This document shows positions 2,154 to 47,062 of a DNA stretch of 64,000 bases, one piece after another (the first letter of the stretch is position 1; every line of letters starts with the position of its first letter). The translations under genes and the position numbers were made by a program. Below the pieces are notes generated by a model. The model saw only the letters and a program-made list of their open reading frames with translations, had not been told where the DNA came from and did no database searches. Source of the stretch: Chloroflexota bacterium (GTDB lineage: Bacteria; Chloroflexota; Limnocylindria; Limnocylindrales; CSP1-4); the NCBI GenBank assembly GCA_046045415.1, contig JBJOLT010000042.1:17468-81467 (forward strand). The letters run 5' to 3'.

Positions 2154-3107
2154 ATGTCGACAGTCCGGACGCGGCGCCTCGGCGCACTCCTCGCAACGAG
2201 CCTCCTCGTGGCGGCCTGCAGCGGCGGGTCGCCGAGCGAGGGTGGCGGCGGGGCGGGCGACCAGCTCGCCGGAGCGATCTCGATCGACGGCTCGAGCACG
2301 GTCTACCCGGTCACCGAGGCGGTCGCCGAGGAGTTCCAGATCGCGAACCCCGGGGTCAAGGTGACGGTCGCCTTCTCCGGGACCGGCGGCGGCTTCAAGA
2401 AGTTCTGCGCCGGCGAGACCGACATGAACAACGCCTCTCGCCACATCAAGGACGAGGAGGCCGAGCTCTGCGCCTCCGGCGGCGTCGAGTACCTCGAGCT
2501 CGGTGTCGCGACGGACGCGCTCTCGGTCGTCGTCAATCCGGCGAACACCTGGGCGGCGTGCCTGACGGTCGACCAGCTCAAGTCGATCTGGGACGAGGGG
2601 AGCACCGTGACGAAGTGGTCCGACGTCGACCCGGCGTTCCCCGCCGAGCCGATCACGCTCTTCGGCCCCGGCGCCGACTCCGGCACCTTCGACTACTTCA
2701 CCGAGGCGATCAACGGGAAGTCGAAGCAGAGCCGCGCCGACTACACGCAGTCCGAGGACGACAACGCGCTCGTCACCGGGATCGCCGGCGACACGTACGC
2801 GCTCGGCTACTTCGGCTTCGCGTACCTCGAGGAGAACCTCGACAAGGTCCGTGCCGTCGCGGTGGACGGCGGGAGCGGGTGCGTCGAGCCGTCCGCCGCC
2901 TCGGTCGCGGACGGGACCTACACGCCGCTCGCCCGGCCGCTCTACGTCTACCCGTCGCTCGCCTCGCTCCAGCGACCCGAGATGGCGGCCTTCATGACGT
3001 ATTACCTTGAGAACGTGAACGCGTTCGTCGAGGATGTCGGCTACATCGACGCCACGGCCGAGGTGCTCGACGCCTCCCGTGCGGCGCTCGACGCGGCGCT
3101 GAAGTAG
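2154..3107 (+). CDS. pstS: phosphate ABC transporter substrate-binding lipoprotein PstS
   Basis: ATG 2154 within ORF 1929..3107, preceded by GGAGGGA. Lipoprotein signal LLVAACSGG. IDGSSTVYPV and FSGTGGGFKKF are typical PstS motifs. It is followed by pstCAB. Confidence 0.9.
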   Translation: MSTVRTRRLGALLATSLLVAACSGGSPSEGGGGAGDQLAGAISIDGSSTVYPVTEAVAEEFQIANPGVKVTVAFSGTGGGFKKFCAGETDMNNASRHIKDEEAELCASGGVEYLELGVATDALSVVVNPANTWAACLTVDQLKSIWDEGSTVTKWSDVDPAFPAEPITLFGPGADSGTFDYFTEAINGKSKQSRADYTQSEDDNALVTGIAGDTYALGYFGFAYLEENLDKVRAVAVDGGSGCVEPSAASVADGTYTPLARPLYVYPSLASLQRPEMAAFMTYYLENVNAFVEDVGYIDATAEVLDASRAALDAALK

Positions 3108-3111
3108 CCGG

Positions 3112-4026
3112 ATGACCACCCGCCCGGCGATCCTCCCGCGACCGCGGCGGATCGGCGAGACGATCATCGAGGCGGCCCTCTTCGGGGCCGCCTCGATCGG
3201 CGTCATCACGACGCTCGGGATCGTCGCCGTCCTCATCGTCGAGGCGGCCGGCTTCTTCTCCCAGGTCCCGCTGACGGACTTCCTCTTCGGGACCGTCTGG
3301 TCGGCGACGATCGAGCCGGTCCGCTTCGGCGTCCTCCCGCTCGTCGCGGGCACGTTCCTCGTCGCCGCGATCGCCCTCGTCATCGCGGTCCCGCTGGGGC
3401 TCCTCGCGGCGATCTACCTCGCCGAGTACGCGAGCCTCCGCGTCCGGAACCTCGTGAAGCCCGTCCTCGAGACGATCGCCGGGATCCCGACGATCGTCCT
3501 CGGCTTCTTCGCGATCGGCTTCGTGACGCCGAACCTCCTCAAGCCGATCCTCGGCGACTCGATCGGGACCTTCAGCGCCCTCGCCGGCGGGATCGTCGTC
3601 GGGATCCTCATCGCCCCGCTCGTCGCGTCGCTCTCCGAGGACGCGCTCCGGGCGGTCCCGCGGAGCCTCCGGGAGGGGGCGTACGCGCTCGGTGCGACCC
3701 GCTGGGAGGTCGTCCGCTCGGTCGCCCTCCCGGCCGCGATCTCCGGGGTCATGGCGTCGGTCATCCTCGCGGCCTCGCGGGCGATCGGCGAGACGATGGC
3801 CGTCGTGCTCGCCGTCGGGACGAACCCGCAGCTCACCCTCGATCCGCGGGAGAGCATCCAGACGATGACGGCGTTCATCGTCCAGATCAGCCTCGGCGAC
3901 ACGCCGCAGGGCTCGATCCAGTTCCTCGCGCTCTTCGCGGTCGCGCTCGTCCTCTTCCTCCTCACGTTCGGCCTCAACGTCGTGAGCAACCGGATCGTCG
4001 AGCGCATCCGGGAGCGGTACGCATGA
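3112..4026 (+). CDS. pstC: phosphate ABC transporter permease PstC
   Basis: 304 aa, multi-TM, with an EAA-like loop ([25 protein letters not shown]). Position between pstS and pstA. Confidence 0.9.
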
Positions 4027-4928
4027 GCGCCCCGATCGCCGGCGCGGTGGCGGCCGGGACGGCGCGCTTCGAGCCGCGGCTCGCCCGTCGGCGCCTCTAC
4101 GGGGCGATCCTGCTCGGCGCGTGCATCGGCGCCCTCGCGATCCTCATGCTCGCCCTCGTCCTCCTCCTCGTCGACGTCCTCGGGAAGGGGCTCCCGTGGC
4201 TCGACCCGCAGTTCCTCTCCGGCGTCCCGTCCCGGAAGCCGGAGCGGGCCGGGATCCTTCCCGCGCTCGCCGGATCCGTCCAGATCACGATCCTCGTGGC
4301 GCTCTTCACCTTCCCGACCGGCGTCGCCGCGGCGATCTGGCTCCAGGAGTACGCGCGCGACTCGCGGCTCACCCGCCTCCTCCGCCTCAACATCTCGAAC
4401 CTCGCCGGCGTCCCGTCGATCATCTACGGGATCTTCGGACTCGCCCTCTTCGTCCGGGCGCTCGGGCTCGGCTACTCGCTCGTCGCGGGGGCGCTCACGC
4501 TCTCGCTCCTCATCCTCCCGGTCGTCATCGTGGCGACCATCGAGGCGCTCCGCGCCGTCCCGAACTCCCAGCGGGAGGGGGCGTGGGCGCTCGGGGCGAC
4601 GCGATGGCAGGTCGTCCGCGGCGCCGTCCTCCCGGCCGCGGCGCCCGGGATCCTCACCGGGGTGATCCTCGCGATGGCCCGGGCGATCGGCGAGACGGCA
4701 CCGCTCATCCTCGTCGGCGCGGTCACGTTCGTCACCTTCCTCCCCACCCCGTTCGAGGAGGGCTACACGGTCCTCCCGATCCAGATCTTCCAGTGGGCGA
4801 GCCGGCCGCAGGAGGGGTTCCAGGCGATCGCCGCCGCCACGATCGTCGTCGTCCTCGCACTCATGCTCACGCTCAACCTCATCGCGATCGTCCTGCGCGC
4901 CCGTCTCTCGAGGAACGTCCAGTGGTAG
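4023..4928 (+). CDS. pstA: phosphate ABC transporter permease PstA
   Basis: 301 aa, multi-TM, with the loop [28 protein letters not shown] overlap with pstC. Confidence 0.9.
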
Positions 4929-4939
4929 AGGAGTCGTCG

Positions 4940-5821
4940 ATGCTCGCCCAGAGCGATCCGTCCAAGGCTGCGGGCTCGCCGTCCGTCACGGAGCGTCCGG
5001 CCGTCGCGATCGACGTCGCCGGCGGCCTCGCCCGCCGTGACGAGCCGGGCGCGTCCGCCTCGATCGCGATCGAGCTCGGCGAGGTCGGGTGCCACTACGG
5101 GAGCTTCCGCGCGGTCCGCGACGTGACGCTCGCGATCCGGGCGCGCGAGGTGACCGCGCTCATCGGGCCGTCGGGCTGCGGGAAGTCGACGCTCCTGCGG
5201 ACCCTCAACCGGATGAACGACCTGATCCCCGGCTTCCGCGTCGACGGGCGGGTCGTCGTCGACGGCGAGGAGATCTACGGCGCCGCCGCCGATCCGGTCC
5301 TCCTCCGGCGGAAGGTGGGGATGGTCTTCCAGAAGCCGAACCCGTTCCCGAAGTCGATCTACGACAACGTCGCCTTCGGCCCCCGGATCAACGGCTTCCG
5401 CGGCGACCTCGACGGGCTCGTCGAGTCGAGCCTCCGCCGGGCGGCGCTCTGGGACGAGGTGAAGGAGAAGCTCGGGTCGCCCGCGCTCTCGCTCTCCGGC
5501 GGCCAGCAGCAGCGGCTCTGCATCGCACGCGCGATCGCCGTGGAGCCCGCGGTGATCCTCATGGACGAGCCGTGCTCCGCGCTCGACCCGCGGGCCACGC
5601 TCCAGATCGAGGAGCTGATGGCGGAGCTCCGCGAGTCGTACACGATCGTCATCGTCACGCACAACATGCAGCAGGCGGCGCGCGCGTCGGACACGACCGT
5701 CTTCATGACGATGGGGGACGACCGGGCGGGCCGGATCGTCGAGACCGGACCGACGCTCCAGATCTTCACGAACCCGCGCGAGCGGCTGACGGAGGACTAC
5801 ATCTCCGGCAGGTTCGGATAG
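4940..5821 (+). CDS. pstB: phosphate ABC transporter ATP-binding protein PstB
   Basis: ATG 4940 in frame within ORF 4121..5821. Walker [10 protein letters not shown], signature LSGGQQQRL, Walker [12 protein letters not shown], and the PstB-typical [15 protein letters not shown]. Confidence 0.92.
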
Positions 5822-5830
5822 GAGGCGGCG

Positions 5831-6607
5831 ATGGGCGAGCGTGATGACCGGCCGGCCGACGCGATCCGCCGGGACGTCGAGGAGATCCTCCGGCGCGCCG
5901 ACGGGTCCGAGGCGCCGGTCGGGGCGGCATCGGCCGGGGCGGGGGTCGGCGCGGTCCGGGGCACACTCGATCGCGAGCTCCGCGAGGTCCGGGCCGCGAT
6001 CCTCCGGATGGGGCTCCTCGTCGAACAGTCGATCCGCGCGGCCGTCGATGCGCTGAGCCGCCACGACGCGGCGGCGGCGGAGGCCGTCATCCATGGCGAC
6101 CGAGCCGTGAACGAGATGCAGCGGGAGATCGCCGCGCTCATCACCGCGACGATCGCGACGCAGGGGCCGGTCGCCCGCGACCTCCGCTTCCTTCTCGCGC
6201 TCGATCACGTGACGTACGAGCTCGAGCGGATCGGGGACCACGCCGGGAGCGTCGCGAAGCAGGCCCGGAAGCTCGCCCCGTTCCCGCCGGTGGCGCGCGC
6301 CGTCCTCGTCGAGGAGATGGGAGAGCTCGCGGCCCGGATCCTCCACGACATCCTCCGGGCGCTCGTCGACGTCGATGCGGCGGCGGCCCGCGAGGTGGCC
6401 GCGAGGGACGACGAGATCGACCATCGCTATCACCAGCTCTTCGACGAGATGGTCGTCGCGATGCGTGGCGATCCGGAGCTCGTGGAGCCCGGGACGCGCC
6501 TCCTCTTCGCCGCCCACTACGTCGAGCGGATCGGCGACCGGGTGACGAACATCGCCGAGGACGTCGTCTTCCTGGAGACCGGGCAGGCCGAGGACCTGAA
6601 CCAGTGA
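5831..6607 (+). CDS. phoU: phosphate signalling regulator PhoU
   Basis: 258 aa. Two PhoU repeats with the E(R)IGDH motif: YELERIGDHAGSVAK and HYVERIGDRVTNIAE. Lies directly after pstB. Confidence 0.88.
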   Translation: MGERDDRPADAIRRDVEEILRRADGSEAPVGAASAGAGVGAVRGTLDRELREVRAAILRMGLLVEQSIRAAVDALSRHDAAAAEAVIHGDRAVNEMQREIAALITATIATQGPVARDLRFLLALDHVTYELERIGDHAGSVAKQARKLAPFPPVARAVLVEEMGELAARILHDILRALVDVDAAAAREVAARDDEIDHRYHQLFDEMVVAMRGDPELVEPGTRLLFAAHYVERIGDRVTNIAEDVVFLETGQAEDLNQ

Positions 6608-7137
6608 GGGCCGGGGCGGGGTCGGGCGAGCGGCAGGGGCAGCCGGTCGAGCTCTACCTCGTCCGCCACGCGCACGCGGGCGATCCGGCGCGCTGGAGCG
6701 GCGACGACGCGGCCCGGCCGCTCTCCGGGAAGGGGCGGCGGCAGGCGGCCCGGCTCGGTGAGCTCCTCGCCGCCGCCGACCTCCGTCCGGGCGCGATCGT
6801 CTCTTCCCCGAAGACGCGCGCGAGGGAGACCGCCGAGATCGTCGCCGAGCGACTCGGCCCCCGGGTCGCCGTCACGCTCGACGCGCGGGTCGCCGACCGG
6901 TTCGACCTCGAGGCGCTCGCCGCGATCGTCGACGAGCAGGGCCGCCCGCCGCAGGTCGTCGTCGTCGGTCACGACCCGGACCTGAGCGACCTCGTCGCCG
7001 CGCTCGTCGGCGTCGAGTTCCTCCCGATGCGCAAGGGGGCGCTCGCCCGGGTCGACGTCGCGGGCTTCCCGTCGCCGGGAGCGGGCCTCCTCCACTGGTT
7101 CATCTCGCCCGATCTCTACCTCGGGTCGGACGACTAG
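6604..7137 (+). CDS. sixA: SixA-type phosphohistidine phosphatase (histidine phosphatase superfamily)
   Basis: GTG 6604 overlaps the phoU stop (GTGA). ELYLVRHAHAG carries the RH catalytic motif; also LSGKGRRQA, SSPKTRARETAEI and VVVVGHDPDL. 177 aa, the size expected for SixA. Confidence 0.7.
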   Translation: MRAGAGSGERQGQPVELYLVRHAHAGDPARWSGDDAARPLSGKGRRQAARLGELLAAADLRPGAIVSSPKTRARETAEIVAERLGPRVAVTLDARVADRFDLEALAAIVDEQGRPPQVVVVGHDPDLSDLVAALVGVEFLPMRKGALARVDVAGFPSPGAGLLHWFISPDLYLGSDD

Positions 7138-7144
7138 GGGTCGA

Positions 7145-7498
7145 TCACGCCCGCGGCGGCTTCGCCCTCCGGAGCACGACCTCGACCGGCTCGAGCGTCA
7201 CGAGCCCGCCCGCGACCATCGACCCGAGCTCGTCGAGGAGCGGCCGGATGACGCCCGGATCGTCGACCGCCTCGACGACGATCGGGAGGTCCTCGGAGAG
7301 GCGGAGGAGCCGGGTCGTGTGGATCCGCGAGCTCGCCCCGAACCCCTCGATCCCCCGGAGGACCGTCGCGCCGGCGACCCCACGCTCGCGGAGGAACTCG
7401 ACGAGCGCCTGGTAGAGCGGTCGGCCGTGCCACGTGTCCGCCTCGCCGACGTACACCCGGAGCCGGAGCGCCTCGCCCCGGCCGGCCGCATCGCCCAT
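7145..7498 (-). CDS. DUF190 (PII-like, CrcB-associated) protein
   Basis: Last 117 aa of long ORF 7145..9736, starting at ATG 7498. LRVYVGEADTWHGRPLYQALVEFLRERGVAGATVLRGIEGFG is the DUF190 pattern. One-nt overlap with the crcB stop (TGATG). Confidence 0.75.
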   Translation of the reverse strand: MGDAAGRGEALRLRVYVGEADTWHGRPLYQALVEFLRERGVAGATVLRGIEGFGASSRIHTTRLLRLSEDLPIVVEAVDDPGVIRPLLDELGSMVAGGLVTLEPVEVVLRRAKPPRA

Positions 7499-7869
7499 CA
7501 GATCGCCCTCCCGATCGCCAGGCCGGCCCAGACCGCGACGAGCCCGAGCACGGATGAGATCCCGAGGTTCGCGAGCGCCCCGACGAGCGCACCGTCCTCC
7601 CCGAGCCGCCAGGTCTCGAGCATGAGCGTCGAGAAGGTCGTGTACGCGCCGAGGAACCCGACGGCGAGCGGGATCCGGATGTCGGGCGAGAGGAGCGCGC
7701 GCTCCGTCGATGCGGCGAAGAGGATCCCGAGAATGAACGAGCCGGAGAGGTTCACGACGAGCGTCCCGTACGGGAACGACTCCCCGACGACGGTAGCGAC
7801 CCAGCCGCCGACGAGGTAGCGGGCGACGGCGCCGGCGGCCCCGCCGATCCCGATCAGCGCGAGCGTCAT
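7498..7869 (-). CDS. crcB: fluoride channel CrcB/FluC
   Basis: 123 aa with four hydrophobic helices. GGAAGAVARY, FPYGTLVVNLSGSFILG and GFLGAYTTFSTL are CrcB signatures. Confidence 0.88.
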   Translation of the reverse strand: MTLALIGIGGAAGAVARYLVGGWVATVVGESFPYGTLVVNLSGSFILGILFAASTERALLSPDIRIPLAVGFLGAYTTFSTLMLETWRLGEDGALVGALANLGISSVLGLVAVWAGLAIGRAI

Positions 7870-7916
7870 CGACCGAGGATAGCGAGGGGCGGGCGGGCCG
7901 GTACCATCGCCCGGTC

Positions 7917-8909
7917 ATGGACGAGCCCGCCTCCACGGCACCGATCCGCGTCGGCGCGGCGATCGACATCGGGTCGAACTCCGCGCACCTCCTCGTCGCG
8001 GCCGTCGGGGCGGGGGGCGGCAGCCCGCTCGTGCCGCTCGTCGACGAGTCCGTCTTCCTCGGGCTCGGCGAGCGCGTGGCCGCGACCGGGGCGCTCGGCG
8101 CCGAGGCCCGGGAGGCGACCGTCGCGGCGCTCGCCGGCTTCGCCGCGACGGCCCGCTCGCGCGGGGTCGCCGACGACGCACTCCTCCTCCTCGGGACCGA
8201 GCCGGTCCGCCGCGCGGCCGACGGTCCGCTCCTCGCCGCCGAGGTGGAGGCGGCGCTCGGCGTCCCGCTCCGCATCCTGGACCACGACGAGGAGGCGTGG
8301 CTGACGGCGCTCGCGATCACCGGTGGCCGCACCCCGGCCGGCCCGCTCGTCATCGTCGACAGCGGCGGCGGGAGCACCGAGGTCGCGCTCCTCGCCCCCG
8401 GGCGCGCTCCCGTCGCGAGCGGGTTCCGCCTCGGGACGGCGTCGCTCACCGCGGCGGTCGCACCGGCGGACCCCCCGACCGCGGACGACCTCGCGCGGCT
8501 CGAGACGGCCGCCGCCCGGATCCTCGCGGGGCTCGCACCCGTCCCGGGGGCACGGGTCGTCGGCCTCGGCGGGACGGTCTCGAATCTCGCGAAGCTCCTC
8601 CCCCCGCCCGGTGCCGGCGGGGCGGACGCGGCCGACCGGCGGCTCACGGGCGACCTGCTCCGCCCGATCGAGGCCGAGCTTCTCGCGACACCCGCCGCGG
8701 CGCTCGTCGCAGGTCGCGGCCTGAATCCCCGCCGGGCGCCGCTCATGGCGGCGGGACTTGCGATCGTCCGGGCGCTCCTCGCGCGGCTCGGGGCCGACGC
8801 GATCGAGGTCTCGGAGGCGAGCTGTCGCGAGGGGGCGATCGTCGCCCGGGCGCTCGCCGGCGTGGCGTGGCGGGAGCGGCTCGCGTCGCTCGTCGCCGGC
8901 GGGGACTGA
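7917..8909 (+). CDS. ppx: Ppx/GppA family exopolyphosphatase (short two-domain form)
   Basis: 330 aa. ASKHA-fold motifs AIDIGSNSAHLLV, VDSGGGSTEV and GLGGTVSNL. Confidence 0.8.
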   Translation: MDEPASTAPIRVGAAIDIGSNSAHLLVAAVGAGGGSPLVPLVDESVFLGLGERVAATGALGAEAREATVAALAGFAATARSRGVADDALLLLGTEPVRRAADGPLLAAEVEAALGVPLRILDHDEEAWLTALAITGGRTPAGPLVIVDSGGGSTEVALLAPGRAPVASGFRLGTASLTAAVAPADPPTADDLARLETAAARILAGLAPVPGARVVGLGGTVSNLAKLLPPPGAGGADAADRRLTGDLLRPIEAELLATPAAALVAGRGLNPRRAPLMAAGLAIVRALLARLGADAIEVSEASCREGAIVARALAGVAWRERLASLVAGGD

Positions 8910-8988
8910 GCCGCCCCGGCGGGGACTGAGACGCCCCGGCGGGGACTGAGCCGCCCCGGTCGGATCGCCCCGGTCAGATCGCCCCGGT
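8901..8988. repeat. tandem repeats in the convergent ppx / CYTH-CHAD junction: 3 x 20 nt, then 2 x 14 nt
   Basis: Read directly. GGGGACTGAG(C/A)CGCCCCGG(C/T) occurs at 8901-8920, 8921-8940 and 8941-8960. It is followed by C(G/A)GATCGCCCCGGT at 8961-8974 and 8975-8988. The first unit holds the ppx stop (TGA 8907-8909). The CYTH-CHAD stop (8974-8976) straddles the junction of the two 14-mers. Confidence 0.9.
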
Positions 8989-10542
8989 CACCCGCCCGAG
9001 CGCCGCACGGAAGTCGGTCCCGCCCACCCCGGCCCACGCCCCGCCGATCCCGGCCCGCAGCCGCTCGACCTCGCGCTCCCGGCTCGCCACGTACCGGCCG
9101 ATCGCGATCGCCGCCCCTTCGTCGAGGCCGTCGGCCCGCTCGCCGGCGAAGCGACGCGCGAGTTCGCCCGCGACGACGGCGTCGTTCAGCTCGCCGAGAT
9201 GGTCCTGGAGGACGACGAGCCGGGCGACGAGCTCGTCCGCCTCCGCCGGAAGGACCTCGCGGAGGAACTCGATCGTGTAGCGGAGTCGCTTCGCCGCGAT
9301 CCGCAGGTCGTGGAGCGTCTCGTCGTCGGCGGCGCCGAGGAGCGGCTCGAAGGCGCGGACCCCCTCGTACGCCGACCAGAGCGCCGATGCGGCCGTCTCG
9401 CGGATCCGCGACGGCGTCCCGGGTACGGGCCGGACGCTCGCCGCGCCGTCGGTCGTCACGAACGCGCGGAACTCGTCGAGCCAGCGACGGTGCTCCTCGG
9501 CGTCGAGCTCGCGGACGAGGTCGAGCCGCGCCTGCCAGCGCTCGTGACGGAGCTCCTCGACGAACGGCTCCAGCCCGATCCGTTCCGCCGGCGGGAGCGG
9601 CTCGAGATGGCGCTCCAGCCCCGCGAGGAGGACGTCGCGGTCCCGTACCGCGCCGAGGAGGTCGCCGAGCGTCTTCAGCCGCTTCCGGAGCGTGCGGGTC
9701 CGCCCGTCGCGCCACCCGGCCTCGAAGACGCGCCACGCCGCGCGGAGCCGCCGCGTCGCGACCCGCATCGCCTTCAGCTCGCCGGGATCCTCGCCGAGCC
9801 GGGTCCCCGCCTCCCGCGCGACGAGCCGGTCAAGCTGGATCCGGAGCACCTTCCGGCCCGCCTCGGCGACGGTGTCGTCCGGTCGGATCCCCGGCCGCCG
9901 CGGTGGGACCGCCCCGGTCGCCTCCAGCGTCCGCTCCATCTTCGAGCGGACCGCGTGGACGAGCCCCGGCGCCGCGTCGAGGATCGCCGCGAGCTCGGCG
10001 AGCCGCCCCTCCGATCCGTCGCGGAGCTCGGCCTCGAGCTCGACGAAGCGGAGGACCGTCCGGCCGCCGGCGAGGACCTCGACCTCGTCCACCGTCGCCT
10101 CGACCCGGGCATCGTCCGCGACCAGCTCGTACGGGGTCCGGCGTTGCCGGGCGGCGCCGAGGACGACGAGCGGCGCCTCGCCGACGAGCTCGACGAGGAT
10201 CGCCCGCGGGCCGGACGGCGGCCACTCCCCGGGGAGGAGCGACGGACCGGCCGGCGCCTCGTGCTCGATCCGGCGGTGCTCCGCGCCGTCCCGCGTCGCG
10301 ACCGACTTCAGCGTGAGGAGCGTCGCCCCATCGCGCTCGCGGAGACGGGCGACCCAGCCGCCGGCGAGGAGCCGCCGGTCGGCGGTGTCGACGTAGCGGT
10401 CGTGCGTCTCGTACGGGGTCCCCGCGGGGCCGACGGCGAAGGGACCGAGCCTCCCTGCCGCGAGCGGCGCGGCCGCCGTCGCCGCGTCCGGGGCCTCGTA
10501 CTTCAGCTCGATCTCGACCGGCCGTCCCTCCGCGTCGATCAC
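8974..10542 (-). CDS. CYTH-CHAD two-domain protein (triphosphate tunnel metalloenzyme-like plus polyphosphate-granule-associated CHAD domain)
   Basis: GTG 10542 overlaps the ppk stop (GTGA); it is the C-terminal part of ORF 8974..12609. N-terminal VEIELKYE is the CYTH ExExK motif. The C-terminal half is helical and Arg-rich, CHAD-like (MRVATRRLRAAWRVF, LRIAAKRLRYTIEF). Confidence 0.8.
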   Translation of the reverse strand: MIDAEGRPVEIELKYEAPDAATAAAPLAAGRLGPFAVGPAGTPYETHDRYVDTADRRLLAGGWVARLRERDGATLLTLKSVATRDGAEHRRIEHEAPAGPSLLPGEWPPSGPRAILVELVGEAPLVVLGAARQRRTPYELVADDARVEATVDEVEVLAGGRTVLRFVELEAELRDGSEGRLAELAAILDAAPGLVHAVRSKMERTLEATGAVPPRRPGIRPDDTVAEAGRKVLRIQLDRLVAREAGTRLGEDPGELKAMRVATRRLRAAWRVFEAGWRDGRTRTLRKRLKTLGDLLGAVRDRDVLLAGLERHLEPLPPAERIGLEPFVEELRHERWQARLDLVRELDAEEHRRWLDEFRAFVTTDGAASVRPVPGTPSRIRETAASALWSAYEGVRAFEPLLGAADDETLHDLRIAAKRLRYTIEFLREVLPAEADELVARLVVLQDHLGELNDAVVAGELARRFAGERADGLDEGAAIAIGRYVASREREVERLRAGIGGAWAGVGGTDFRAALGRVTGAI

Positions 10543-12701
10543 GCGCGGGGGTCCATCGACCCCGCCCCGGCGCCCGGCCGGTGCGGGGCCGACGAGGCGT
10601 CCTCTCCTTCGAGCGCGGCGTCCTTCAGGGCGGCGAACGTGTCGACGAGGCCGGCGCGGGCGTCGAGCTCCTCGGTCCGCCGCCAGCGGCCGTCCGAACC
10701 GAGCTGCCACGAGCGGCGGTCGTCGGCGAGCATCGTCTCGACGATCTCGGCGAGCCGACCCTGGGCCGCCGAGTCCTCGATCGGGGTGACCGCCTCGACC
10801 CGTCGGTCGAGGTTCCGGTCCATCAGGTCGGCGGAGCCGATGTACCACTCCCGGTTCCCGCCGTTGAGGAAGCCGAGGATCCGCGAGTGCTCGAGGAACT
10901 CGCCGACGACCGAGCGGACCCTGATCGTCTCGCTCAGCCCCTCGACCCCGGGGACGAGCGAGCAGATCCCCCGGACGATCAGGTCGACCCGGACGCCGGC
11001 CTGGCTCGCCCGGTAGAGGGCCTCGATCGTCGGGACGTCGACGATCGCGTTCACCTTCAGGACGACGTGCGCCGGACGGCCGGCCTGCGCATGGCCGATC
11101 TCCCGCTCGATCAGCTCGAGGATCCGCGAGCGGAGGCTGTGCGGCGCGACGAGGAGGCGCCGGAAGGTCCGCTGTCGCGAGAGCCCCGTGAGGACGTTGA
11201 AGAGGTCGGTGACGTCCGCGCCGAGCTCGGGGCGGCAGCTGAGGAGGCCGAGGTCGACGTAGAGGTTCGCCGTCTTCGGGTTGTAGTTCCCGGTCCCGAT
11301 GTGGACGTAGCGACGGAGCGTGCTCCCCTCGCGCCGGACGACGAGGCAGACCTTCGAGTGGGTCTTGAGGCCCACGAGCCCGTAGACCACGTGGGCGCCG
11401 GCCTGCTCCAGCTTCCGCGCCCAGACGATGTTCGCCTCCTCGTCGAAGCGGGCCTTGATCTCGACGAGGACGACGACCTGCTTCCCCCGCTCCGCCGCCC
11501 GGATCAGGTTCCGGACGATCGGCGAGTCGCCCGAGGTCCGGTAGAGCGTCTGCTTGATGGAGAGGACGTCGGGGTCGTCGGCCGCCTGCTCGATGAAGCG
11601 CTCGACGGAGGCGACGAAGCTCTCGTACGGGTGGTGGACGAGGATGTCGCCCGCCCGGATCGCGGCGAAGACGTCGGCCGGCTCGTCCTCGTCGGGCGGC
11701 ACGAGGCGCGGCGGGACGACCGGGGTCCAGGCGGGGTCGCGGAGCTCCGGGATGTCGAGCTCGGCGATCGCGGCGAGCCCGGTGAGGTCGAGCATCCCGG
11801 CGATCTCGTAGCACGCCTCCGGCTCCAGCCCGATCCCCCGGAGGAGGAGCGCGCGGGTCGCCTCCGGCATCGAGCGCTCCACCTCGATCCGGACGGCGTC
11901 GCCGAAGCGCCGTCGCCGGAGCTCCTCCTCGATCGCGAGGAGGAGGTCGTCCGCCTCGTCCTCCTCGATCGCGAGGTCCGCGTCGCGCGTGACGCGGAAG
12001 CAGTGGGTGTCGACGATCTCCATCCCGCTGAAGAGGAGATCGAGGTTCGCCTCGATCACCTGGTCGACGAGGACGTACGTCCGGGGCTCCACCTCGAGGA
12101 GGCGGGGGAGGAGCGGCGGGACCTTCACCCGCGCGAAGCGGCGCTCGTTCGTCTCCGGGTCGCGGAGCCCGACGGCGATCGAGAGGCTGAGCGTGCTGAT
12201 GTACGGGAACGGGTGGCCCGGATCGACGGCGAGCGGCGTGAGGACCGGGAAGATCTCGTCCGTGAAGCGGCGGCGAAGCTCCTCGTGGTGCTCGGTCAGA
12301 TCGCCGTAGTCGACGAAGCGGATCCCGGCGGCCGCGAGCTCGCCGCGGATCCCGGCGAAGATCGCCGACTGCTCCTCGATCAGCTCGCGGACCCGCGGCC
12401 TGATCGCGGCGAGCTGCTCCTGGGCGTTCCGACCGTCCGGCGAGACCTGCACCTTCCGGGCGGTCGCCTGCTTGCGGAGACCGGAGATCCGGACCTGGAA
12501 GAACTCGTCGAGGTTGCTCGAGAAGATCGAGAGGAACTTCACGCGCTCGAGGAGCGGGTTCCGCCCGTCGCGGGCCTCGTGGAGGACGCGCGCGTTGAAG
12601 TCGAGCCACGAGAGCTCGCGGTTCAGGTACGGGAGCCGCTCCGGCACGCGCTTCGCGCGCCTCGCGGTCCTCGTCGCGGCGGTCGACCTCACGGCGGTCA
12701 C
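10539..12701 (-). CDS. ppk: polyphosphate kinase 1
   Basis: 720 aa. YLNRELSWLDFNARVL, FLSIFSSNLDEFFQVR and the HSKVCLVVR phospholipase-D-like repeats are typical of PPK1. Confidence 0.93.
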   Translation of the reverse strand: MTAVRSTAATRTARRAKRVPERLPYLNRELSWLDFNARVLHEARDGRNPLLERVKFLSIFSSNLDEFFQVRISGLRKQATARKVQVSPDGRNAQEQLAAIRPRVRELIEEQSAIFAGIRGELAAAGIRFVDYGDLTEHHEELRRRFTDEIFPVLTPLAVDPGHPFPYISTLSLSIAVGLRDPETNERRFARVKVPPLLPRLLEVEPRTYVLVDQVIEANLDLLFSGMEIVDTHCFRVTRDADLAIEEDEADDLLLAIEEELRRRRFGDAVRIEVERSMPEATRALLLRGIGLEPEACYEIAGMLDLTGLAAIAELDIPELRDPAWTPVVPPRLVPPDEDEPADVFAAIRAGDILVHHPYESFVASVERFIEQAADDPDVLSIKQTLYRTSGDSPIVRNLIRAAERGKQVVVLVEIKARFDEEANIVWARKLEQAGAHVVYGLVGLKTHSKVCLVVRREGSTLRRYVHIGTGNYNPKTANLYVDLGLLSCRPELGADVTDLFNVLTGLSRQRTFRRLLVAPHSLRSRILELIEREIGHAQAGRPAHVVLKVNAIVDVPTIEALYRASQAGVRVDLIVRGICSLVPGVEGLSETIRVRSVVGEFLEHSRILGFLNGGNREWYIGSADLMDRNLDRRVEAVTPIEDSAAQGRLAEIVETMLADDRRSWQLGSDGRWRRTEELDARAGLVDTFAALKDAALEGEDASSAPHRPGAGAGSMDPRA

Positions 12702-12797
12702 GGGTGACGGGGCTCCTCGACAGGACGTCGCGTCCCGGGCGCGACGGGCGGCGACGATAGCACGGACGTGCAGCGGCGCCCTCTGGCGCGAAGGTAC

Positions 12798-12834
12798 CGC
12801 CCGCTCAGGACCCGCGCCCGCTCAGGACCCGCGC
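12798..12834. repeat. perfect 17-nt tandem duplication (2.2 copies) spanning the stop codon of the DUF971 gene
   Basis: CGCCCGCTCAGGACCCG occurs at 12798-12814 and 12815-12831, followed by CGC. The functional stop (TCA on +, 12822-12824) lies in copy 2. Confidence 0.9.
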
Positions 12835-13172
12835 GCCGCCGTGCACGCCGGGCAGGGACACCGTTCGCGGAGGAGGGCGAACGTGTAGAAGCCGGTCGCG
12901 TGGCCGTCGCCCCACGTCGGGGCGACGGCGTAGCTCCCGACGAGCGCGAGGTCCGTGAGCGTCGTCTGCGCCTCGCTCAGGGTCGGGGCCGAGTCGAGCC
13001 AGCCCGGGAGCCCCGCCTCGCCCCGGCAGTAGGCGCACGGGCAGAGCCAGCGGAGCGCGGTGAAGTCGTAGGCCGAGCGGTGGCCGTCGGCCCAGTCGAT
13101 CTCCAGCGTGCGTATCGCGCGCTCGACGCGGAAGGCGACCGGAGCGGGCCGGCCGGGTGCGGGGGTCGTCAT
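12822..13172 (-). CDS. DUF971 family zinc-binding protein
   Basis: Last 116 aa of ORF 12822..13781, starting at ATG 13172. LEIDWADGHRSAYDFTALRWLCPCAYC and GDGHATGFYTF match the DUF971 (gamma-butyrobetaine hydroxylase N-terminal-like) pattern. Confidence 0.7.
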   Translation of the reverse strand: MTTPAPGRPAPVAFRVERAIRTLEIDWADGHRSAYDFTALRWLCPCAYCRGEAGLPGWLDSAPTLSEAQTTLTDLALVGSYAVAPTWGDGHATGFYTFALLRERCPCPACTAARGS

Positions 13173-13230
13173 CACCCGATCGTAGCCGCCCCGCGCCATC
13201 CCCGCGGCGGCCGGGTCGGGGAAGATAGGG

Positions 13231-15827: not shown

Positions 15828-17501
15828 GTGTCGCGCCGCGTCCGCCTCCGCCCCTGGCAGCACGAGGCACTCGGGCGCTTCGCCGCCTCCTCCCGGCGCG
15901 ACTTCCTCGCCGTCGCGACGCCGGGCGCCGGCAAGACGACGTTCGCGCTCGCCGTCCTCCGGACGCTCCTCGGGGAGCGGCCGGCGCGGGTCGTCGTCGT
16001 CGCCCCGACCGCCCACCTGAAGCTCCAGTGGTCCTCGGCGGCCGCCGGACTCGGCCTCCACCTCGACCCGGCCTGGTCGCCCGGCGACGGGCCGCCGCCC
16101 ACCGACATGCACGGCGTCGTCACGACCTACCAGCAGGTCGCGCTGAGCGCCCCGGCGATCGCCCCGTACGCGCGGGACGCGTACGTCGTGCTCGACGAGG
16201 TCCACCATGCCGGGGACGAGCAGGCGTGGGGCGCGTCGCTCCGCGCCGCCTTCGACGGGTCGGCGCGGCGGCTCGCCCTCTCCGGGACGCCGTTCCGGAG
16301 CGACACGCGGGCGATCCCGTACGTGCGCTACGAGGGCGACGAGGCGGCCCCCGACTACGAGTACGGCTACGGCGACGCGCTCCGCGAGGGCCGGGTCGTC
16401 CGGCCCGTCTACTTCCCGCGGATCGGCGGCGCGATGGAATGGTCGGCGCCAGACGGGAACGTCCACGCGGCCACATTCGACGACCCGCTCGCGACCGAAC
16501 TCGCCAACCAGCGGCTCCGGACGGCCCTCTCCCTCGACGGGGAGCTCCTCCCGACGCTCGTCGGCGAGGCGGTCGGACGGCTCCGCGACGTCCGGCGGCT
16601 CCACCCCGATGCGGCCGGGCTCGCGATCGCGATCGACCAGGAGCATGCGCGCGGCCTCGCGGAGCTGCTCCGCCGCCGGGGCGTCGACCCGGTCGTCGCA
16701 CTCTCGGACGACCCGGACGCGTCGCGCCGGATCGCCGCGTTCGGCCGGGGGAGCGGCGAGTGGCTCGTCGCCGTCCGGATGGTCTCCGAGGGGGTCGACA
16801 TCCCGCGGCTCCGGGTCGGGATCTTCGCGACGACGACGACGACCGACCTCTTCTTCCGCCAGGCGGTGGGCCGCTTCGTCCGCTGGGTCCCCGGGATCCG
16901 CGACCAGCGGGCGTGGCTCTACCTTCCGGACGACCCGAGGCTCCGTCTCCGCGCCGCGACGATCGCGGAGCAGCGGCGTCACTCGCTCCGGCGCGACCGG
17001 GACGGCGACGCCGACGCCCCGCCGCCGGTCCGGCCGGTGGACGACGGGGAGCAGCTCTCCCTCTTCGCGGCGCTCTCCGCGACCCCGACCGGCGAGGTCG
17101 GCGGGGCGGCGCCGTGGCACGAGCCGCTCCCCGACGACTGGCTCGACGGGAGCGCCGGGGCGGCGGGAGCCATCGAGGTCGACCTCGCGCCGCCGCCACC
17201 GACCGGGGCCTTCGCCGGCACGGGCGTGGGCGATCACGGGGCGGACGGCGGAGGTGCCGGTGGCGGGGCGTCGGGTCCCGGGCTCGGCGGCCGCTCGCTC
17301 GCGCAGGTCCGCGCGCACCTCCGGACGGTGAACGCCGACCTCGCGCGCGACCTCGTCCGGGTCACCGGCATGACGTACGCCCAGGTCAATCTCGAGCTGA
17401 ACCGGAAGGCGGGCATCGGCCGGATCGACGACGCGACGGTGGATCAGCTGAGCGAGCGGCTCGTCGCGGCGCAGCGGTGGCGGGAGCGGCTCGTCCGCTG
17501 A
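15828..17501 (+). CDS. superfamily 2 DExH-box helicase (type III restriction Res-like core) with Gly-rich linker and C-terminal tail
   Basis: GTG 15828 in frame within ORF 12768..17501. Motif I ATPGAGKTT, motif II VLDEVHH, motif III LSGTPFRSD, motif V SEGVDIPR, motif VI QAVGRFVR. Confidence 0.8.
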   Translation: MSRRVRLRPWQHEALGRFAASSRRDFLAVATPGAGKTTFALAVLRTLLGERPARVVVVAPTAHLKLQWSSAAAGLGLHLDPAWSPGDGPPPTDMHGVVTTYQQVALSAPAIAPYARDAYVVLDEVHHAGDEQAWGASLRAAFDGSARRLALSGTPFRSDTRAIPYVRYEGDEAAPDYEYGYGDALREGRVVRPVYFPRIGGAMEWSAPDGNVHAATFDDPLATELANQRLRTALSLDGELLPTLVGEAVGRLRDVRRLHPDAAGLAIAIDQEHARGLAELLRRRGVDPVVALSDDPDASRRIAAFGRGSGEWLVAVRMVSEGVDIPRLRVGIFATTTTTDLFFRQAVGRFVRWVPGIRDQRAWLYLPDDPRLRLRAATIAEQRRHSLRRDRDGDADAPPPVRPVDDGEQLSLFAALSATPTGEVGGAAPWHEPLPDDWLDGSAGAAGAIEVDLAPPPPTGAFAGTGVGDHGADGGGAGGGASGPGLGGRSLAQVRAHLRTVNADLARDLVRVTGMTYAQVNLELNRKAGIGRIDDATVDQLSERLVAAQRWRERLVR

Positions 17502-17518: not shown

Positions 17519-18307
17519 TCAGTCGCCGAGCGGCAGCCGCTCGAAGACCGCGATGATCGGCCGGACGGGCATCGCGGCGGCGAGGTCGACGGGCGCGCCC
17601 CGGCCAGCATCCCCGGGCACCCCGGCCGCGTCATCCGCCACCTCGTCCGCGGATTCCGCCACCCCGTCCGGCGGGTCGCACGGGACGAAGCGCCACGTCC
17701 GGCTCCGCACGCCCGGGAGATACGGCCCGCGCCGGTGGCGCCCCACGATGCCGTGGAGCCCCTGGGCCGTCGCCGCCCGGTGGAGGTCGATCCCGGCACC
17801 GGCGATCGCCGGGACGACGACGAGGGAGCCGGCCGGAGTCGCGCCCGGGCCCGACGCGACCGTCGCGAGGAGGAGCTCCCGGCGACGCTCGAGCGGGAGC
17901 GCGAGGAGCGGCCGCCCGTCGAGGTCGAGGATGTCGAAGACGAGGTAGGCGGCGGCCGGTCCGGCCATGCCGGCGATCCGCGCGGCGAGCGCGACCGGGT
18001 CCGCCCGTCCGGCCGCGTCCGCGACGACGAGCTCGCCGTCGAGGAGCGCCGAGGCCGCGCCGACCGACGTCCCGAGGTCCGCGAGCTCGGGCAGGTTGGG
18101 AGCGAGGTCGCGACCGCGTGCGTCGTGGAGCCGTGCGGGCCGGCCCGGCGCGACGGCCGCGAGGAGCCGTTCGCCGCCCCACCGCGGCTCGAAGAGATGG
18201 TCCGCCGCGTCGAACGGGGTGCGACCCGGCCGCGCGAGCATCGGGCGGAGCGGCGGCGGGAGGCCCGGCCGGCCCGGCTCGAGGGGGAGGAGGAGCTGGT
18301 CGGCCAT
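17519..18307 (-). CDS. ATP-dependent DNA ligase-like nucleotidyltransferase domain protein with degenerate catalytic motifs (probable pseudo-enzyme)
   Basis: 262 aa. PMLA, LDGELVV, YLVFDILDLDG and LPLERRRELL align with ligase motifs. Motif I reads FEPRWGGER instead of KxDGxR, motif IV reads HGIVGR and motif V reads WRFV. No OB domain follows. Confidence 0.65.
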   Translation of the reverse strand: MADQLLLPLEPGRPGLPPPLRPMLARPGRTPFDAADHLFEPRWGGERLLAAVAPGRPARLHDARGRDLAPNLPELADLGTSVGAASALLDGELVVADAAGRADPVALAARIAGMAGPAAAYLVFDILDLDGRPLLALPLERRRELLLATVASGPGATPAGSLVVVPAIAGAGIDLHRAATAQGLHGIVGRHRRGPYLPGVRSRTWRFVPCDPPDGVAESADEVADDAAGVPGDAGRGAPVDLAAAMPVRPIIAVFERLPLGD

Positions 18308-18365
18308 CGCCGGCCGATGGTACCGGTCGCGCGACCGGCGGGGTCGCCGCTATCCTGACGCCCTG

Positions 18366-21903: not shown

Positions 21904-22695
21904 TCACGCCCCACGGGAATAGGGCGACCCTCGCGACGACGCCCCCGCACGCCGCCGTGGCGACACCCGTCTGACTGCCGTCGTGGCTCCTCCAACGCCC
22001 CCTGCACGGGAATAGGGCGAGAACGAGAGGGCCCGGAGCGACCCGTGCGGCGACCGGAGCCACGAGCGAACGGCGCGGAACCCGTCCGGAAGGCCGGTCG
22101 CGATCAGGGGACCGGCGGACGCGAGGCGACGCCGGTTCATCGAGGACTCGGCGATGACGACCCAGACGCCGACCGAGGCCGGCCTACTCCAGCCTCGCTC
22201 CTGAGCCACCGCCGGGCCGAGCCGTCGGTACCGGTCGACCTGGGCCAGCAGCCGGCCAGGGTCGGCCAGCTCCGTCTTGACCTCGATCACCAGCAGCGCG
22301 GCAGCGTCGGGGTGCCACGCGAGGACGTCGATCGCGCCCCGTTCGCCGTAGACGGAGAACGTGACCTCCGCTGCGACGACCCACTCACGGGGGAGCAGCT
22401 CGAGGACGCGCCGCTGTAGCCGCACATGGTTGGCGTTGACGAGCCGATCCGAGTCGCCGCCCCGCCAGCGTGCGGACAGGCTCAGCCGCACCTCGAGGAC
22501 GCTCGCGATCGAACGCAGGTCCGCGAGCCGCAGGTCGTCGGCGCCGCCGGTCTCCACGCGCGAGATCTGGGAGCCCGACACGCCAGCCCGTGCCGCCACG
22601 TCCACCTGGCGCCACCCGCGCCCGATCCGGATCGCCCGCAGCAGTCGACCCACCGCGACGTCGTCCATCGGGAGACCGTAGCGAACGGGCCTCAT
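21904..22695 (-). CDS. XRE-family HTH domain fused to a PD-(D/E)xK nuclease-like domain
   Basis: 263 aa; an alternative ATG lies at 22668. N-terminal IRIGRGWRQVDVAARAGVSGSQISRVETG is an HTH_XRE pattern. Mid-region GAIDVLAW...LLVIEVKTEL fits the D...ExK motif. The C-terminal 50 aa are low complexity. Codon usage differs from neighbouring genes. Confidence 0.65.
   Translation of the reverse strand: MRPVRYGLPMDDVAVGRLLRAIRIGRGWRQVDVAARAGVSGSQISRVETGGADDLRLADLRSIASVLEVRLSLSARWRGGDSDRLVNANHVRLQRRVLELLPREWVVAAEVTFSVYGERGAIDVLAWHPDAAALLVIEVKTELADPGRLLAQVDRYRRLGPAVAQERGWSRPASVGVWVVIAESSMNRRRLASAGPLIATGLPDGFRAVRSWLRSPHGSLRALSFSPYSRAGGVGGATTAVRRVSPRRRAGASSRGSPYSRGA
21912..22020. repeat. two perfect 16-bp direct repeats, 93 bp apart
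   Basis: CACGGGAATAGGGCGA occurs at 21912-21927 and 22005-22020, read directly. Both copies are locally AT-richer than their surroundings and lie in the 3' tail of the HTH gene ORF. Confidence 0.9.
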
Positions 22696-46138: not shown

Positions 46139-47062
46139 CTACGTCCGCCAGCGGTGCGGCCGGTCCGCGAGCCGCGTGAGCCCCATCTCGTCGCAGAAGG
46201 CGCGCCATCCGTCGCGCGGCGTCCCGAGCCAGCGGAGCTCGTCGGGGTCGCGCTCGGGCAGCGGCGAGTCGCGGCGGAGCGTCGCGAGCTCGCGGAAGAG
46301 GAGTGCCTCGTCGAAGCGCTCGCGGAGCGTCGCCGCGAGCCGTTCGGCGCCGCGGACCGGCACCTCCCACGCCGCCGCGTCCCGCGGGATCGCCTCGAGC
46401 CGGCCGTAGCGCGCGAGGACCGCGGCAGCGCTCGTCGCACCCCAGCCGGGGAGCCCGGGGTATCCGTCGGCCGCGTCGCCGACGAGCGCGAGGAGGTCCG
46501 GGATCGAGGCGGGCGGGACCCCCCACTTCGCGCGGACGGCCGCGTCGTCGTACGTGAGGTCGCGGCGCCGGTCGCGGAGGACGACCCGCCCGTCGACGAC
46601 GCACTGGGCGAGATCCTTGTCCGGCGTGCAGATGAGGACGCGCTCGACGCCCGCGGCCGGGCCGCGCCCCCCGGATCCGCCCCCGCCGGGGCTCCCGTCG
46701 CCGCCCCACCGCGCCGCGGCGGTCGCGAGCGCGTCGTCCGCCTCGTGCTCCACCATCGCCCACGAGACGACCCCGAGTGCGACGATCGCTCGCTCGGCGA
46801 TCGGGAACTGCGCGAGGAGCTCGGGCGGGACGCCGGCGTCGGTCTTGTAGCCCGGGTACAGATCGTTCCGGAACGAGGCGACGACGCGGTCCGTCGCGCA
46901 CGCGACGTGGGTCGCGCCCTCGTCGCGGAGGAGGGCGAGGAGCGTGGCGACGAGCCCGGCGACCCCGGTGAGGAGGATCCCGTCGCGGCCCCGGACCGGC
47001 GGACGCGGCGTGTGGTGCGCGCGGAAGAGCTCGTACGTCGCGTCGACGAGGTGGAGCTCCAC
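46139..47062 (-). CDS. 5'-3' exonuclease / flap endonuclease (Pol I N-terminal domain-like)
   Basis: 307 aa. LVDATYELFRA, EHEADDALAT and the H3TH region LALVGDAADGYPGLPGWG. Confidence 0.8.
   Translation of the reverse strand: MELHLVDATYELFRAHHTPRPPVRGRDGILLTGVAGLVATLLALLRDEGATHVACATDRVVASFRNDLYPGYKTDAGVPPELLAQFPIAERAIVALGVVSWAMVEHEADDALATAAARWGGDGSPGGGGSGGRGPAAGVERVLICTPDKDLAQCVVDGRVVLRDRRRDLTYDDAAVRAKWGVPPASIPDLLALVGDAADGYPGLPGWGATSAAAVLARYGRLEAIPRDAAAWEVPVRGAERLAATLRERFDEALLFRELATLRRDSPLPERDPDELRWLGTPRDGWRAFCDEMGLTRLADRPHRWRT

Follow-up and report, generated by a model that had tools for sequence, protein, structure and literature searches.

What can a DNA ligase still do once it has lost the lysine that would carry AMP? 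The question is raised by a 64,000-nucleotide stretch of a Chloroflexota genome (GenBank assembly GCA_046045415.1, contig JBJOLT010000042.1, positions 17,468 to 81,467), which we will call the window and whose own numbering we use throughout. At 17519..18307 on the minus strand, stop codon included, the window encodes a protein of 262 amino acids that has the fold of a ligase and not a single lysine. The gene is supported by the list of open reading frames, by a match to the Pfam domain PF01068, by the 625 proteins that a homology search with its product returned, and by a positive codon-usage score. Its ATG is the first possible start codon, and 262 amino acids is the longest reading. The protein belongs to a family of catalytically dead adenylation domains of the LigD type, and this family is class-wide in the Limnocylindria, a class of the Chloroflexota.

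The ligase fold and its lost catalytic residues

A preliminary description of this DNA, made from the letters alone, had seen the motif order of the ATP-dependent ligases in the translation, and this observation stands. The strings that it quoted are located at residues 22-25 (PMLA), 39-49 (FEPRWGGERLL, with motif I), 89-95 (LDGELVV, motif III), 121-131 (YLVFDILDLDG, motif IIIa), 137-146 (LPLERRRELL), 185-190 (HGIVGR, motif IV), and 205-208 (WRFV, motif V). It had also proposed a search with the profile of the adenylation domain and a comparison of a predicted structure with LigC and LigD. In a Pfam search, residues 22-205 match positions 1-200 of the 204 positions of PF01068, which is nearly the full length of the profile (E = 2.6e-12; 47.3 bits against a cut-off of 26.2). 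The best relative of solved structure is the ligase domain of LigD from Mycobacterium tuberculosis (1vs0, E = 3.9e-16), and the alignment to it has the same order of motifs. We also modeled the protein with AlphaFold2; the predicted local distance difference test score (pLDDT) is 82.8 overall and above 90 in the core. Given this model, Foldseek finds LigD first (6nhx and 1vs0, E about 4e-14, with a query-normalized template modeling score of 0.61) and thereafter solely ATP-dependent ligases. Because of the matches to PF01068, to 1vs0, and from the model, the protein is a relative of the ligases far beyond chance. By these alignments and the model, the nucleotidyltransferase (NTase, or adenylation) domain, which is of the LigD type, extends over residues 20-210 (17678..18250, minus strand), from PMLA to the strand of motif V.

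The catalytic residues of motifs I, IV, and V are gone, as the preliminary description had noticed. In the alignment to 1vs0, FEGKWDGYR of LigD is paired with FEPRWGGER, EGVIAK with HGIVGR, and SWIKDK with TWRFVP. In other words, motif I (KxDGxR) persists as a remnant at residues 39-47 (18167..18193, minus strand) in which lysine has become arginine and aspartate has become glycine. In the remnant of motif IV (EGxxxK; residues 185-190, 17738..17755, minus strand), glutamate has become histidine and lysine has become arginine. Motif V (WxKxK) has been reduced to WRFVP, with neither lysine (residues 205-209, 17681..17695, minus strand). The last two assignments are supported by the alignment of the family as well as by 1vs0. 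Lysine is missing not only from the motifs: the protein contains none, whereas the composition of the window's proteins would lead one to expect 3.7 (Poisson P = 0.024).

The second domain of a typical ligase is missing too. There is no Pfam match to the OB domain (PF04679) in the window protein, which ends 54 amino acids after WRFV (about 55 in the preliminary description), and the models have no folded domain past residue 210, just a disordered linker and one helix. The linker, which takes the place of the OB domain, covers residues 211-246 (17570..17677, minus strand) and is variable, acidic, and disordered (pLDDT 49-66). Across the family it varies from 18 to 69 amino acids, with a median charge of -3. 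The core domain is mildly basic, with an isoelectric point of 8.6 in the family and 10.4 in the window protein.

Compared to LigD and LigC (1vs0, 6nhx), then, the family retains the NTase fold, the PMLA start, the motif order I-III-IIIa-IV-V, and the segment S-x-Y-x-P-G-x-R-S..W, and the window protein is 31% identical to LigD over about 195 aligned residues. Unlike these enzymes, the family has no adenylatable lysine, no aspartate in motif I, no glutamate or lysine in motif IV, no lysines in motif V, and no OB domain, and it has additional conserved peptides at its N and C termini. The window protein cannot be assigned to a named curated family: it falls below the cut-off of every NCBIfam model, the nearest being models of ligases for nonhomologous end joining (NHEJ; TIGR02779, 95.3 bits against 227.75), and the generic PF01068 alone matches.

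Conservation and spread of the family

Is the loss of the catalytic residues peculiar to the window? The preliminary description had suggested aligning the orthologs at RWGG, and the answer from such an alignment is that the loss of the lysine and the aspartate is family-wide. We aligned the window protein with the best 120 of the 625 homologs, for 121 rows in all; nearly all of the 120 are 235-290 amino acids long, and PF01068 is the sole domain in each. The position of the motif I lysine is occupied by serine (69 rows), tryptophan (21), alanine (12), asparagine (6), arginine (4), or threonine (4), and never by lysine, while the position of the aspartate is glycine in 112 of the 121 rows. In motif IV, the glutamate has been replaced by alanine, glycine, proline, or histidine and the lysine by an invariant arginine. 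In motif V, the two lysine positions are phenylalanine or leucine and proline or alanine. Other parts of the ligase are kept: the glycine and the arginine of motif I, the Asp-Gly-Glu of motif III, the Phe-Asp of motif IIIa, and the LigD-type segment SPYLPGxRSxxW. Within LDGELVV and YLVFD, the residues D90, G91, F124, and D125 never vary, and the glutamate of motif III, E92, is 88% conserved (it is present in 106 of the 121 rows and is otherwise C, S, N, or D).

We also asked if another lysine might have taken over, which the preliminary description had named as an outcome that would overturn its reading. Among the 120 homologs, 77 have no lysine at all and 28 have just one, and no column of the alignment is a conserved lysine. 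As the window protein and 77 of its relatives contain no lysine, an alternative active-site lysine is ruled out. Because the catalytic residues of motifs I, IV, and V have been replaced and most members do not have any lysine, the lysyl-AMP chemistry of ligases is, judging from the sequences, impossible in this family. For the window protein, which has no lysine to modify, we predict a negative result both for the formation of a ligase-AMP adduct and for the sealing of nicks.

In a profile search of 1.84 billion representatives, we found two groups that are cleanly apart. About fifty short representatives have the features of the dead family. On the other side, all of the 69 active-looking ligases that we checked have K and D in motif I and E and K in motif IV, and 67 of the 69 have K at the first lysine position of motif V.

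The gene is retained under purifying selection. The ratio of nonsynonymous to synonymous substitution rates (dN/dS) is 0.06-0.17 for pairs of close orthologs and 0.285 for the window copy and a relative that is 86% identical (locus L095). Between the latter two, both terminal peptides are identical, and the sole indel is an in-frame difference of 6 amino acids within the linker. It is because dN/dS is well below 1, the terminal peptides are unchanged, and the indel is in frame and within the linker that we consider the gene to be retained. The preliminary description had argued for a retained pseudo-enzyme rather than decay, and the family-wide loss of the motifs, the roughly 400 intact genes described below, and the dN/dS values bear this out. 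Similarly, it had considered that the gene might be a recent lineage-specific pseudogene, and the open reading frame is intact in about 400 genomes.

These genomes come from a scan of one genome per species, in which about 400 stretches of DNA encode relatives (this count depends on two peptide patterns that are specific to the family). Of the best 80 stretches, 76 are titled Chloroflexota, mostly Candidatus Limnocylindria or Limnocylindrales or "uncultured Chloroflexia," and the remaining labels are on short contigs or on contigs with the same gene order. All of these taxon labels are those of metagenome-assembled genomes. In one assembly (CAYLSK01), there are two copies of the family with unequal similarity to the query (L008 and L034), which could be a pair of paralogs or the result of a mixed co-assembly bin. 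PADLOC gave no match for the ligase-fold protein and we found no relative on the viral contigs of IMG/VR, and on these grounds we rejected an origin from a defense system or a phage.

In the literature that we searched for pseudo-ligases, for bacterial ligases without activity, and for ATP-dependent ligases that bind the clamp, we found no description of such a family; lysine-free bacterial paralogs of ligases, bacterial ATP-dependent ligases that bind the clamp, and a "pseudoligase" in the context of NHEJ did not come up either. The family is a previously undescribed, pseudoenzyme branch of the LigD/LigC ligases. In size it resembles Lig E, which is reported to be a minimal ATP-dependent ligase that is small and does not have an accessory DNA-binding domain (PMC6144786). 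The family likewise is small and has no such domain. In contrast to the family, Lig E is active, consists of NTase and OB domains, and has kept all of the catalytic motifs. In JGI and NCBI, members of the family are named "ATP-dependent DNA ligase" or "bifunctional non-homologous end joining protein LigD," which systematically mislabels proteins that are incapable of being adenylated. Because a dead family is annotated as a ligase or as LigD, the repair capacity that has been inferred for the Limnocylindria, which are an uncultured class and make up most of our matches, is probably overstated. The family is also a clean natural case of a pseudoenzyme: the catalytic residues are gone, and yet selection acts to keep the fold, some of the pocket, and two docking-type peptides.

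Terminal peptides and possible roles

The first of these peptides, neither of which the preliminary description had mentioned, is at the N terminus. In the window protein it is QLLLPL (residues 4-9; 18281..18298, minus strand), which fits the pattern Q-phi-x-[L/M]-x-[F/L] and corresponds to DQLSLxLE in the consensus of the family. Across the family, D3 is 93% conserved, Q4 and L5 are invariant, S6 is 91% conserved, L7 is 93% conserved (with M as the other residue), position 8 is free, position 9 is L or F in 98%, and position 10 is E or D, so that the consensus of the N terminus reads M-x-DQLSLxLEP. The strict hexamer is present in 112 of the 120 members, and in 85 of those 112 it begins at residue 4. 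For comparison, just 1 of 1012 other proteins from the fetched loci matches within its first 15 residues. Residues 1-12 are unstructured in the AlphaFold2 model of the window protein (pLDDT below 50), and a second model, of a typical member with 108 sequences, gives the same picture, with the N terminus as a coil at pLDDT 61-66.

Motifs for binding the beta sliding clamp follow the consensus Q-phi-x-[L/M]-[F/L] or Q-phi-x-[L/M]-x-[F/L] (PMC11139829). The best-studied N-terminal example is Hda, whose PAQLSLPLYL lies in a disordered N terminus with acidic flanks and binds with a Kd of 0.38 uM (PMC11139829). The likeness is close, as the disordered N-terminal hexapeptide is QLSLPL in Hda, QLLLPL in the window protein, and QLSLxL in the family. 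However, Hda is an AAA+ protein with another fold and another function, and clamp binding has been measured for Hda whereas it is predicted for the family. In addition, a related lysine-free protein that still has its OB domain begins with MPQLSLF, which contains a canonical clamp pentapeptide. We infer that the N-terminal peptide of the family is a motif of the Hda type for binding the beta sliding clamp. A clamp-binding type of peptide on a dead ligase fold is at least a concrete prediction that can be checked.

The second peptide is a hydrophobic helix at the C terminus, PIIAVFERLPL in the window protein (residues 250-260; 17528..17560, minus strand). The motif is present in 113 of the 120 members, and its consensus is P-[VI]-L-A-[LV]-[IF]-x-R-L-P-[LF], followed by 2-4 mostly acidic residues. 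P250, A253, R257, L258, and P259 are each at least 95% conserved, and both models predict the helix, at pLDDT of about 72-84.

What might a dead ligase with two such peptides do? We lean toward the view that the family derives from an NHEJ ligase, has been retained without catalytic activity, and serves as an adaptor that is probably tethered to the sliding clamp by its N-terminal peptide, and we hold this view tentatively, with confidence that falls a little short of even. The protein would have descended from an end-joining ligase that was associated with Ku and would now be non-catalytic. Its dead NTase domain, being mildly basic, might bind a discontinuity in DNA (a nick or an end, possibly 5'-adenylated) or else an adenine nucleotide. 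Both terminal peptides would dock the protein to partners, and by means of the N-terminal one it would ride on DnaN, or be recruited by it, at sites of replication or repair. There is a precedent in ImuB, which has a catalytically dead fold of the Y-family polymerases and a clamp-binding motif and which acts as an adaptor (PMC10421592). The family shares this logic of a dead enzyme fold combined with a clamp-type motif. ImuB differs in that its motif, QLPLWG, is internal or C-terminal, its operon is defined, and its partners are known, which does not apply to the family.

Several points count against a clamp-tethered adaptor. The evidence for binding to the clamp is the motif itself. The conserved stretch at the N terminus, DQLSLxLEPxLPxLPxxLRPM, is longer than a clamp motif, and related proteins from Ku operons have a version of it without the Q (LELPLD in P0192). 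The peptide could instead bind Ku or some other partner, or it could pack on the domain. With neither an OB domain nor another DNA-binding domain, an NTase domain should have little affinity for DNA. Finally, no gene for repair or replication is a conserved neighbor; instead, the gene lies among a peptidase or DeoC, an ABC transporter, and the edge of a polyphosphate cluster.

If the peptides dock the protein to Ku or LigD rather than to the clamp, then the family would be a non-catalytic accessory factor for NHEJ, that is, a scaffold or a regulator at double-strand breaks. We see this as a possible role, and a doubtful one. It draws its support from the nearest relatives beyond the family, which keep the OB domain. 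In a neighbor-joining tree (a rough, quick distance tree), the short dead family is together, followed by OB-bearing proteins with a mixed motif I and then by a large clade with K and D. Several proteins without the lysine of motif I are encoded directly after Ku. P0172 (FEVLWGGVR; L090:671-2502) and P0213 (FELMWGGLR; L100:1731-3655 and L101:2-1704) overlap the stop codon of Ku, and P0192 (FEVNWAGLR; L094:7137-11763) has Ku on one side and, on the other, a full LigD (phosphoesterase, ligase, and Prim-Pol domains), on a contig that looks actinobacterial. No Ku was found near P0220 and P0168. The closest active relative, P0159, has the K/D motifs and an OB domain and also follows Ku (L091:7138-9035, L092, and L093), and the named matches to its Ku are from Candidatus Dormibacterota. 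P0159 is among the active ligases that score best against the profile of the family, and its N-terminal DQLQIELE resembles the family's peptide; therefore, the terminal peptide is older than the loss of catalysis.

Other support for a scaffold at Ku comes from known proteins. In M. tuberculosis, the C terminus of Ku contacts the ligase domain of LigD (bioRxiv 10.64898/2025.12.12.693941). In eukaryotes, DNA ligase IV is reported to have a structural role in NHEJ that does not depend on ligation (PMC9638927, PMC10858965). As in our proposal, a ligase body contributes to repair without catalysis. The difference is that the inactive ligase IV is an engineered mutant with all of its domains, whereas the family is naturally inactive, is conserved, and has no OB domain.

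On the other hand, we found Ku neither in the window nor within 10 kb on either side of the loci from Limnocylindria, and in a profile search with four Ku sequences, the best 120 matches listed include only Ku of the Dormibacterota type. Also, the Ku-coupled P0172 and P0213 do not have the N-terminal motif. The residues of M. tuberculosis LigD that contact Ku (D522, K579, and L580) correspond to positions 84, 144, and 145, as counted from the 1vs0 alignment, and these are variable in dead and active representatives alike, so that they speak neither for nor against a contact with Ku. Dead paralogs of ligases may turn up repeatedly in Ku operons as a component that has yet to be described, and together the dead family and its relatives that are coupled to Ku or flanked by Ku and LigD suggest that non-catalytic ligase bodies recur in bacterial end joining, as they do in eukaryotic end joining.

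Going back to the clamp-tethered adaptor, we can imagine a more specific version of it, which we consider unlikely: the dead ligase domain, held at the clamp, might recognize nicks or ends without sealing them and serve as a placeholder or sensor that controls the access of LigA or LigD. For example, discontinuities in a strand could be preserved for mismatch repair, unloading of the clamp could be gated, or breaks could be handed to end joining. In the usual description, bacterial end joining takes two proteins, Ku and LigD. If the placeholder exists, then lysine-free paralogs of ligases, including those that are encoded between Ku and LigD in other phyla, would be an unrecognized third component.

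Alternatively, the protein might act off DNA, as a regulator that senses or sequesters nucleotides, either because its adenosine pocket binds ATP, AMP, NAD, or ADP-ribose or in some link with the genes for polyphosphate. In favor of such a regulator, the glycine and arginine of motif I, the aspartate and glutamate of motif III, and the phenylalanine and aspartate of motif IIIa have been kept while the residues for phosphate, metal, and catalysis have been lost. Also, the gene is at the edge of a cluster for phosphate and polyphosphate (2154-13199 in the window, L005:8001-14353, and L088:8001-13861), which includes genes for a pstS-like protein, a permease, an ATPase, PhoU, Ppx, CYTH-CHAD, PPK, and a DUF971-type protein. 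In L088 and L005, the gene is co-directional with DUF971-YbjQ-PPK-CYTH/CHAD and lies 17 to about 110 nt upstream. Nevertheless, we think that such a regulator is improbable. The glutamate of motif III is not invariant (106 of 121 rows), every residue that would contact phosphate is gone, and the clamp-type motif points to DNA. In most genomes, transporter genes in the opposite orientation separate the gene from the polyphosphate cluster. Furthermore, the gene order of the whole region is conserved, so adjacency has little weight. The window, which has 74.5% G+C, has the order of PPK, CYTH-CHAD, Ppx, the DUF971-type gene, a P-type ATPase, DeoC, and two aldehyde dehydrogenases in common with its relatives, and this shared order identifies its source as a divergent member of their lineage. 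The position beside the polyphosphate cluster may be mere conserved gene order.

The preliminary description had thought a functional pairing with the adjacent helicase conceivable, and this we reject, save as synteny that has been inherited within the window's narrow sublineage. The helicase (15828..17501, plus strand) belongs to superfamily 2 by Pfam (ResIII/DEAD, with a DEVH box), is convergent with the ligase-fold gene, and lies outside the conserved unit. In favor of a partnership, just 17 bp separate the two stop codons in the window, the pair is also adjacent and convergent in L095, the locus of the closest relative (P0002), with a gap of 50 bp and a helicase that is 93% identical, and both genes are under purifying selection in the closest relatives. 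The helicase is probably adjacent in L096-L099, and beside P0001, as well. However, it is absent from all 87 of the other loci: it is a singleton in our clustering of genes, and tblastn finds none within 10 kb on either side. (To delimit neighborhoods, we called genes by codon usage alone and clustered them by BLAST; this procedure is crude, although its results agree with the gene calls of the database for five long contigs.) Nor would a convergent pair be transcribed together. In relatives, the place of the window's helicase is occupied by genes of an ABC transporter, which suggests a local rearrangement in the window's lineage. Because the helicase is found beside the closest relatives only and is absent from the 87 other loci, the adjacency is a recent and lineage-specific arrangement with no sign of a functional pair, and we would be very surprised if the two proteins worked together. 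As for the helicase itself, it has 557 amino acids; its N terminus weakly resembles PbeA and a Dnd restriction helicase, and the C-terminal third, of about 200 amino acids, has no assignment.

We give just as little credence to a cryptic enzyme that has a nucleophile other than lysine or uses the ligase fold for other chemistry. Part of the pocket is conserved, and some proteins that had been labeled as pseudoenzymes are reported to have proved active later (PMC10211241). Yet the key position of motif I varies freely (S, W, A, N, R, or T), the metal-binding glutamate of motif IV and both lysines of motif V are lost, and there is no invariant histidine, cysteine, or serine in the pocket beyond those that are common to active ligases. 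Least credible of all is a decaying pseudogene or lineage-specific relic, as the window copy is divergent (S6L, R81S, A174D, and L204T, all at nearly invariant positions of the family) but about 400 genomes have an intact gene, dN/dS is well below 1, the terminal motifs are identical to those of the 86%-identical relative, and indels keep the frame and occur within the linker alone.

The upstream element and the remaining neighborhood

The gene has a conserved sequence upstream. In the window, TACCATCG (18315..18322, minus strand) lies 7 nt before the ATG, and from the upstream alignment it is probably a -10 element of the form TAnnnT. Further upstream, GGATAGCGG (18347..18355, minus strand) is the window's version of an element, (A)GTCTAGCGG, that we identified by aligning 71 distinct upstream regions. 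Across the relatives, 76 of 88 loci have CTACCATCG ahead of the start codon, at a distance of 4-9 nt, and in most of them (A)GTCTAGCGG directly abuts CTACCATCG. With GGGACG about 17 nt upstream of TACCAT, the element as a whole reads GGGACG-N17-TACCAT, with (A)GTCTAGCGG(G)CTACCATCG, and it lies about 16-45 nt upstream of the gene in L001-L087. In the window and L095, the (A)GTCTAGCGG-type element is displaced by about 20 extra nucleotides. Because its spacing to the ATG varies out of frame, the element is non-coding.

There is no room for a Shine-Dalgarno sequence between TACCATCG and the start codon. As no ribosome-binding site fits, we suggest that TACCATCG is probably the -10 box of a promoter and that the mRNA is probably leaderless or nearly so. 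The same 8-mer is found 5-8 nt before other start codons, namely, those of ppx in the window (7902-7919, plus strand), L074:8750, L015:433 (minus strand), and L017:19777 (minus strand). This rules out a gene-specific operator, and TACCATCG looks like a general -10 signal of leaderless genes in these genomes. In contrast, (A)GTCTAGCGG was not seen at the other TACCATCG sites and is specific to the ligase-fold gene. The GTCTAGCGG part, whose core is the short palindrome TAGC-N0-2-GCTA, may be an operator. A strict scan for sigma-70 promoters and terminators found nothing in the upstream region, which is 74% G+C. By inspection, we saw no LexA-type box (GAAC-N4-GTTC) in the aligned upstream regions, and the spacing is unlike that of the mycobacterial RecA-independent promoter motif.

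The ligase-fold gene is a single-gene unit. Its divergent upstream neighbor is an S9/Tricorn-like peptidase at 42 of 65 loci and DeoC at 16 of 65. The convergent downstream neighbor is an ABC-2 permease at 54 of 67 loci, and this is followed by the ATPase of the transporter. None of these conserved neighbors is concerned with DNA.

We also note two other genes in the window. First, 21904-22695 (minus strand) encodes a protein of 263 amino acids with an N-terminal helix-turn-helix domain (HTH_31/HTH_3) and a C-terminal part of about 190 amino acids that has no Pfam match. It lies between the genes for aldehyde dehydrogenases and an ABC transporter and is absent from that place in the relatives that we inspected. 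Second, 46139-47062 (minus strand) encodes a stand-alone 5'-3' exonuclease/flap endonuclease of 307 amino acids (PF02739 and PF01367). This gene and the helicase are the only other genes of DNA metabolism that we identified among those that we annotated in the window.

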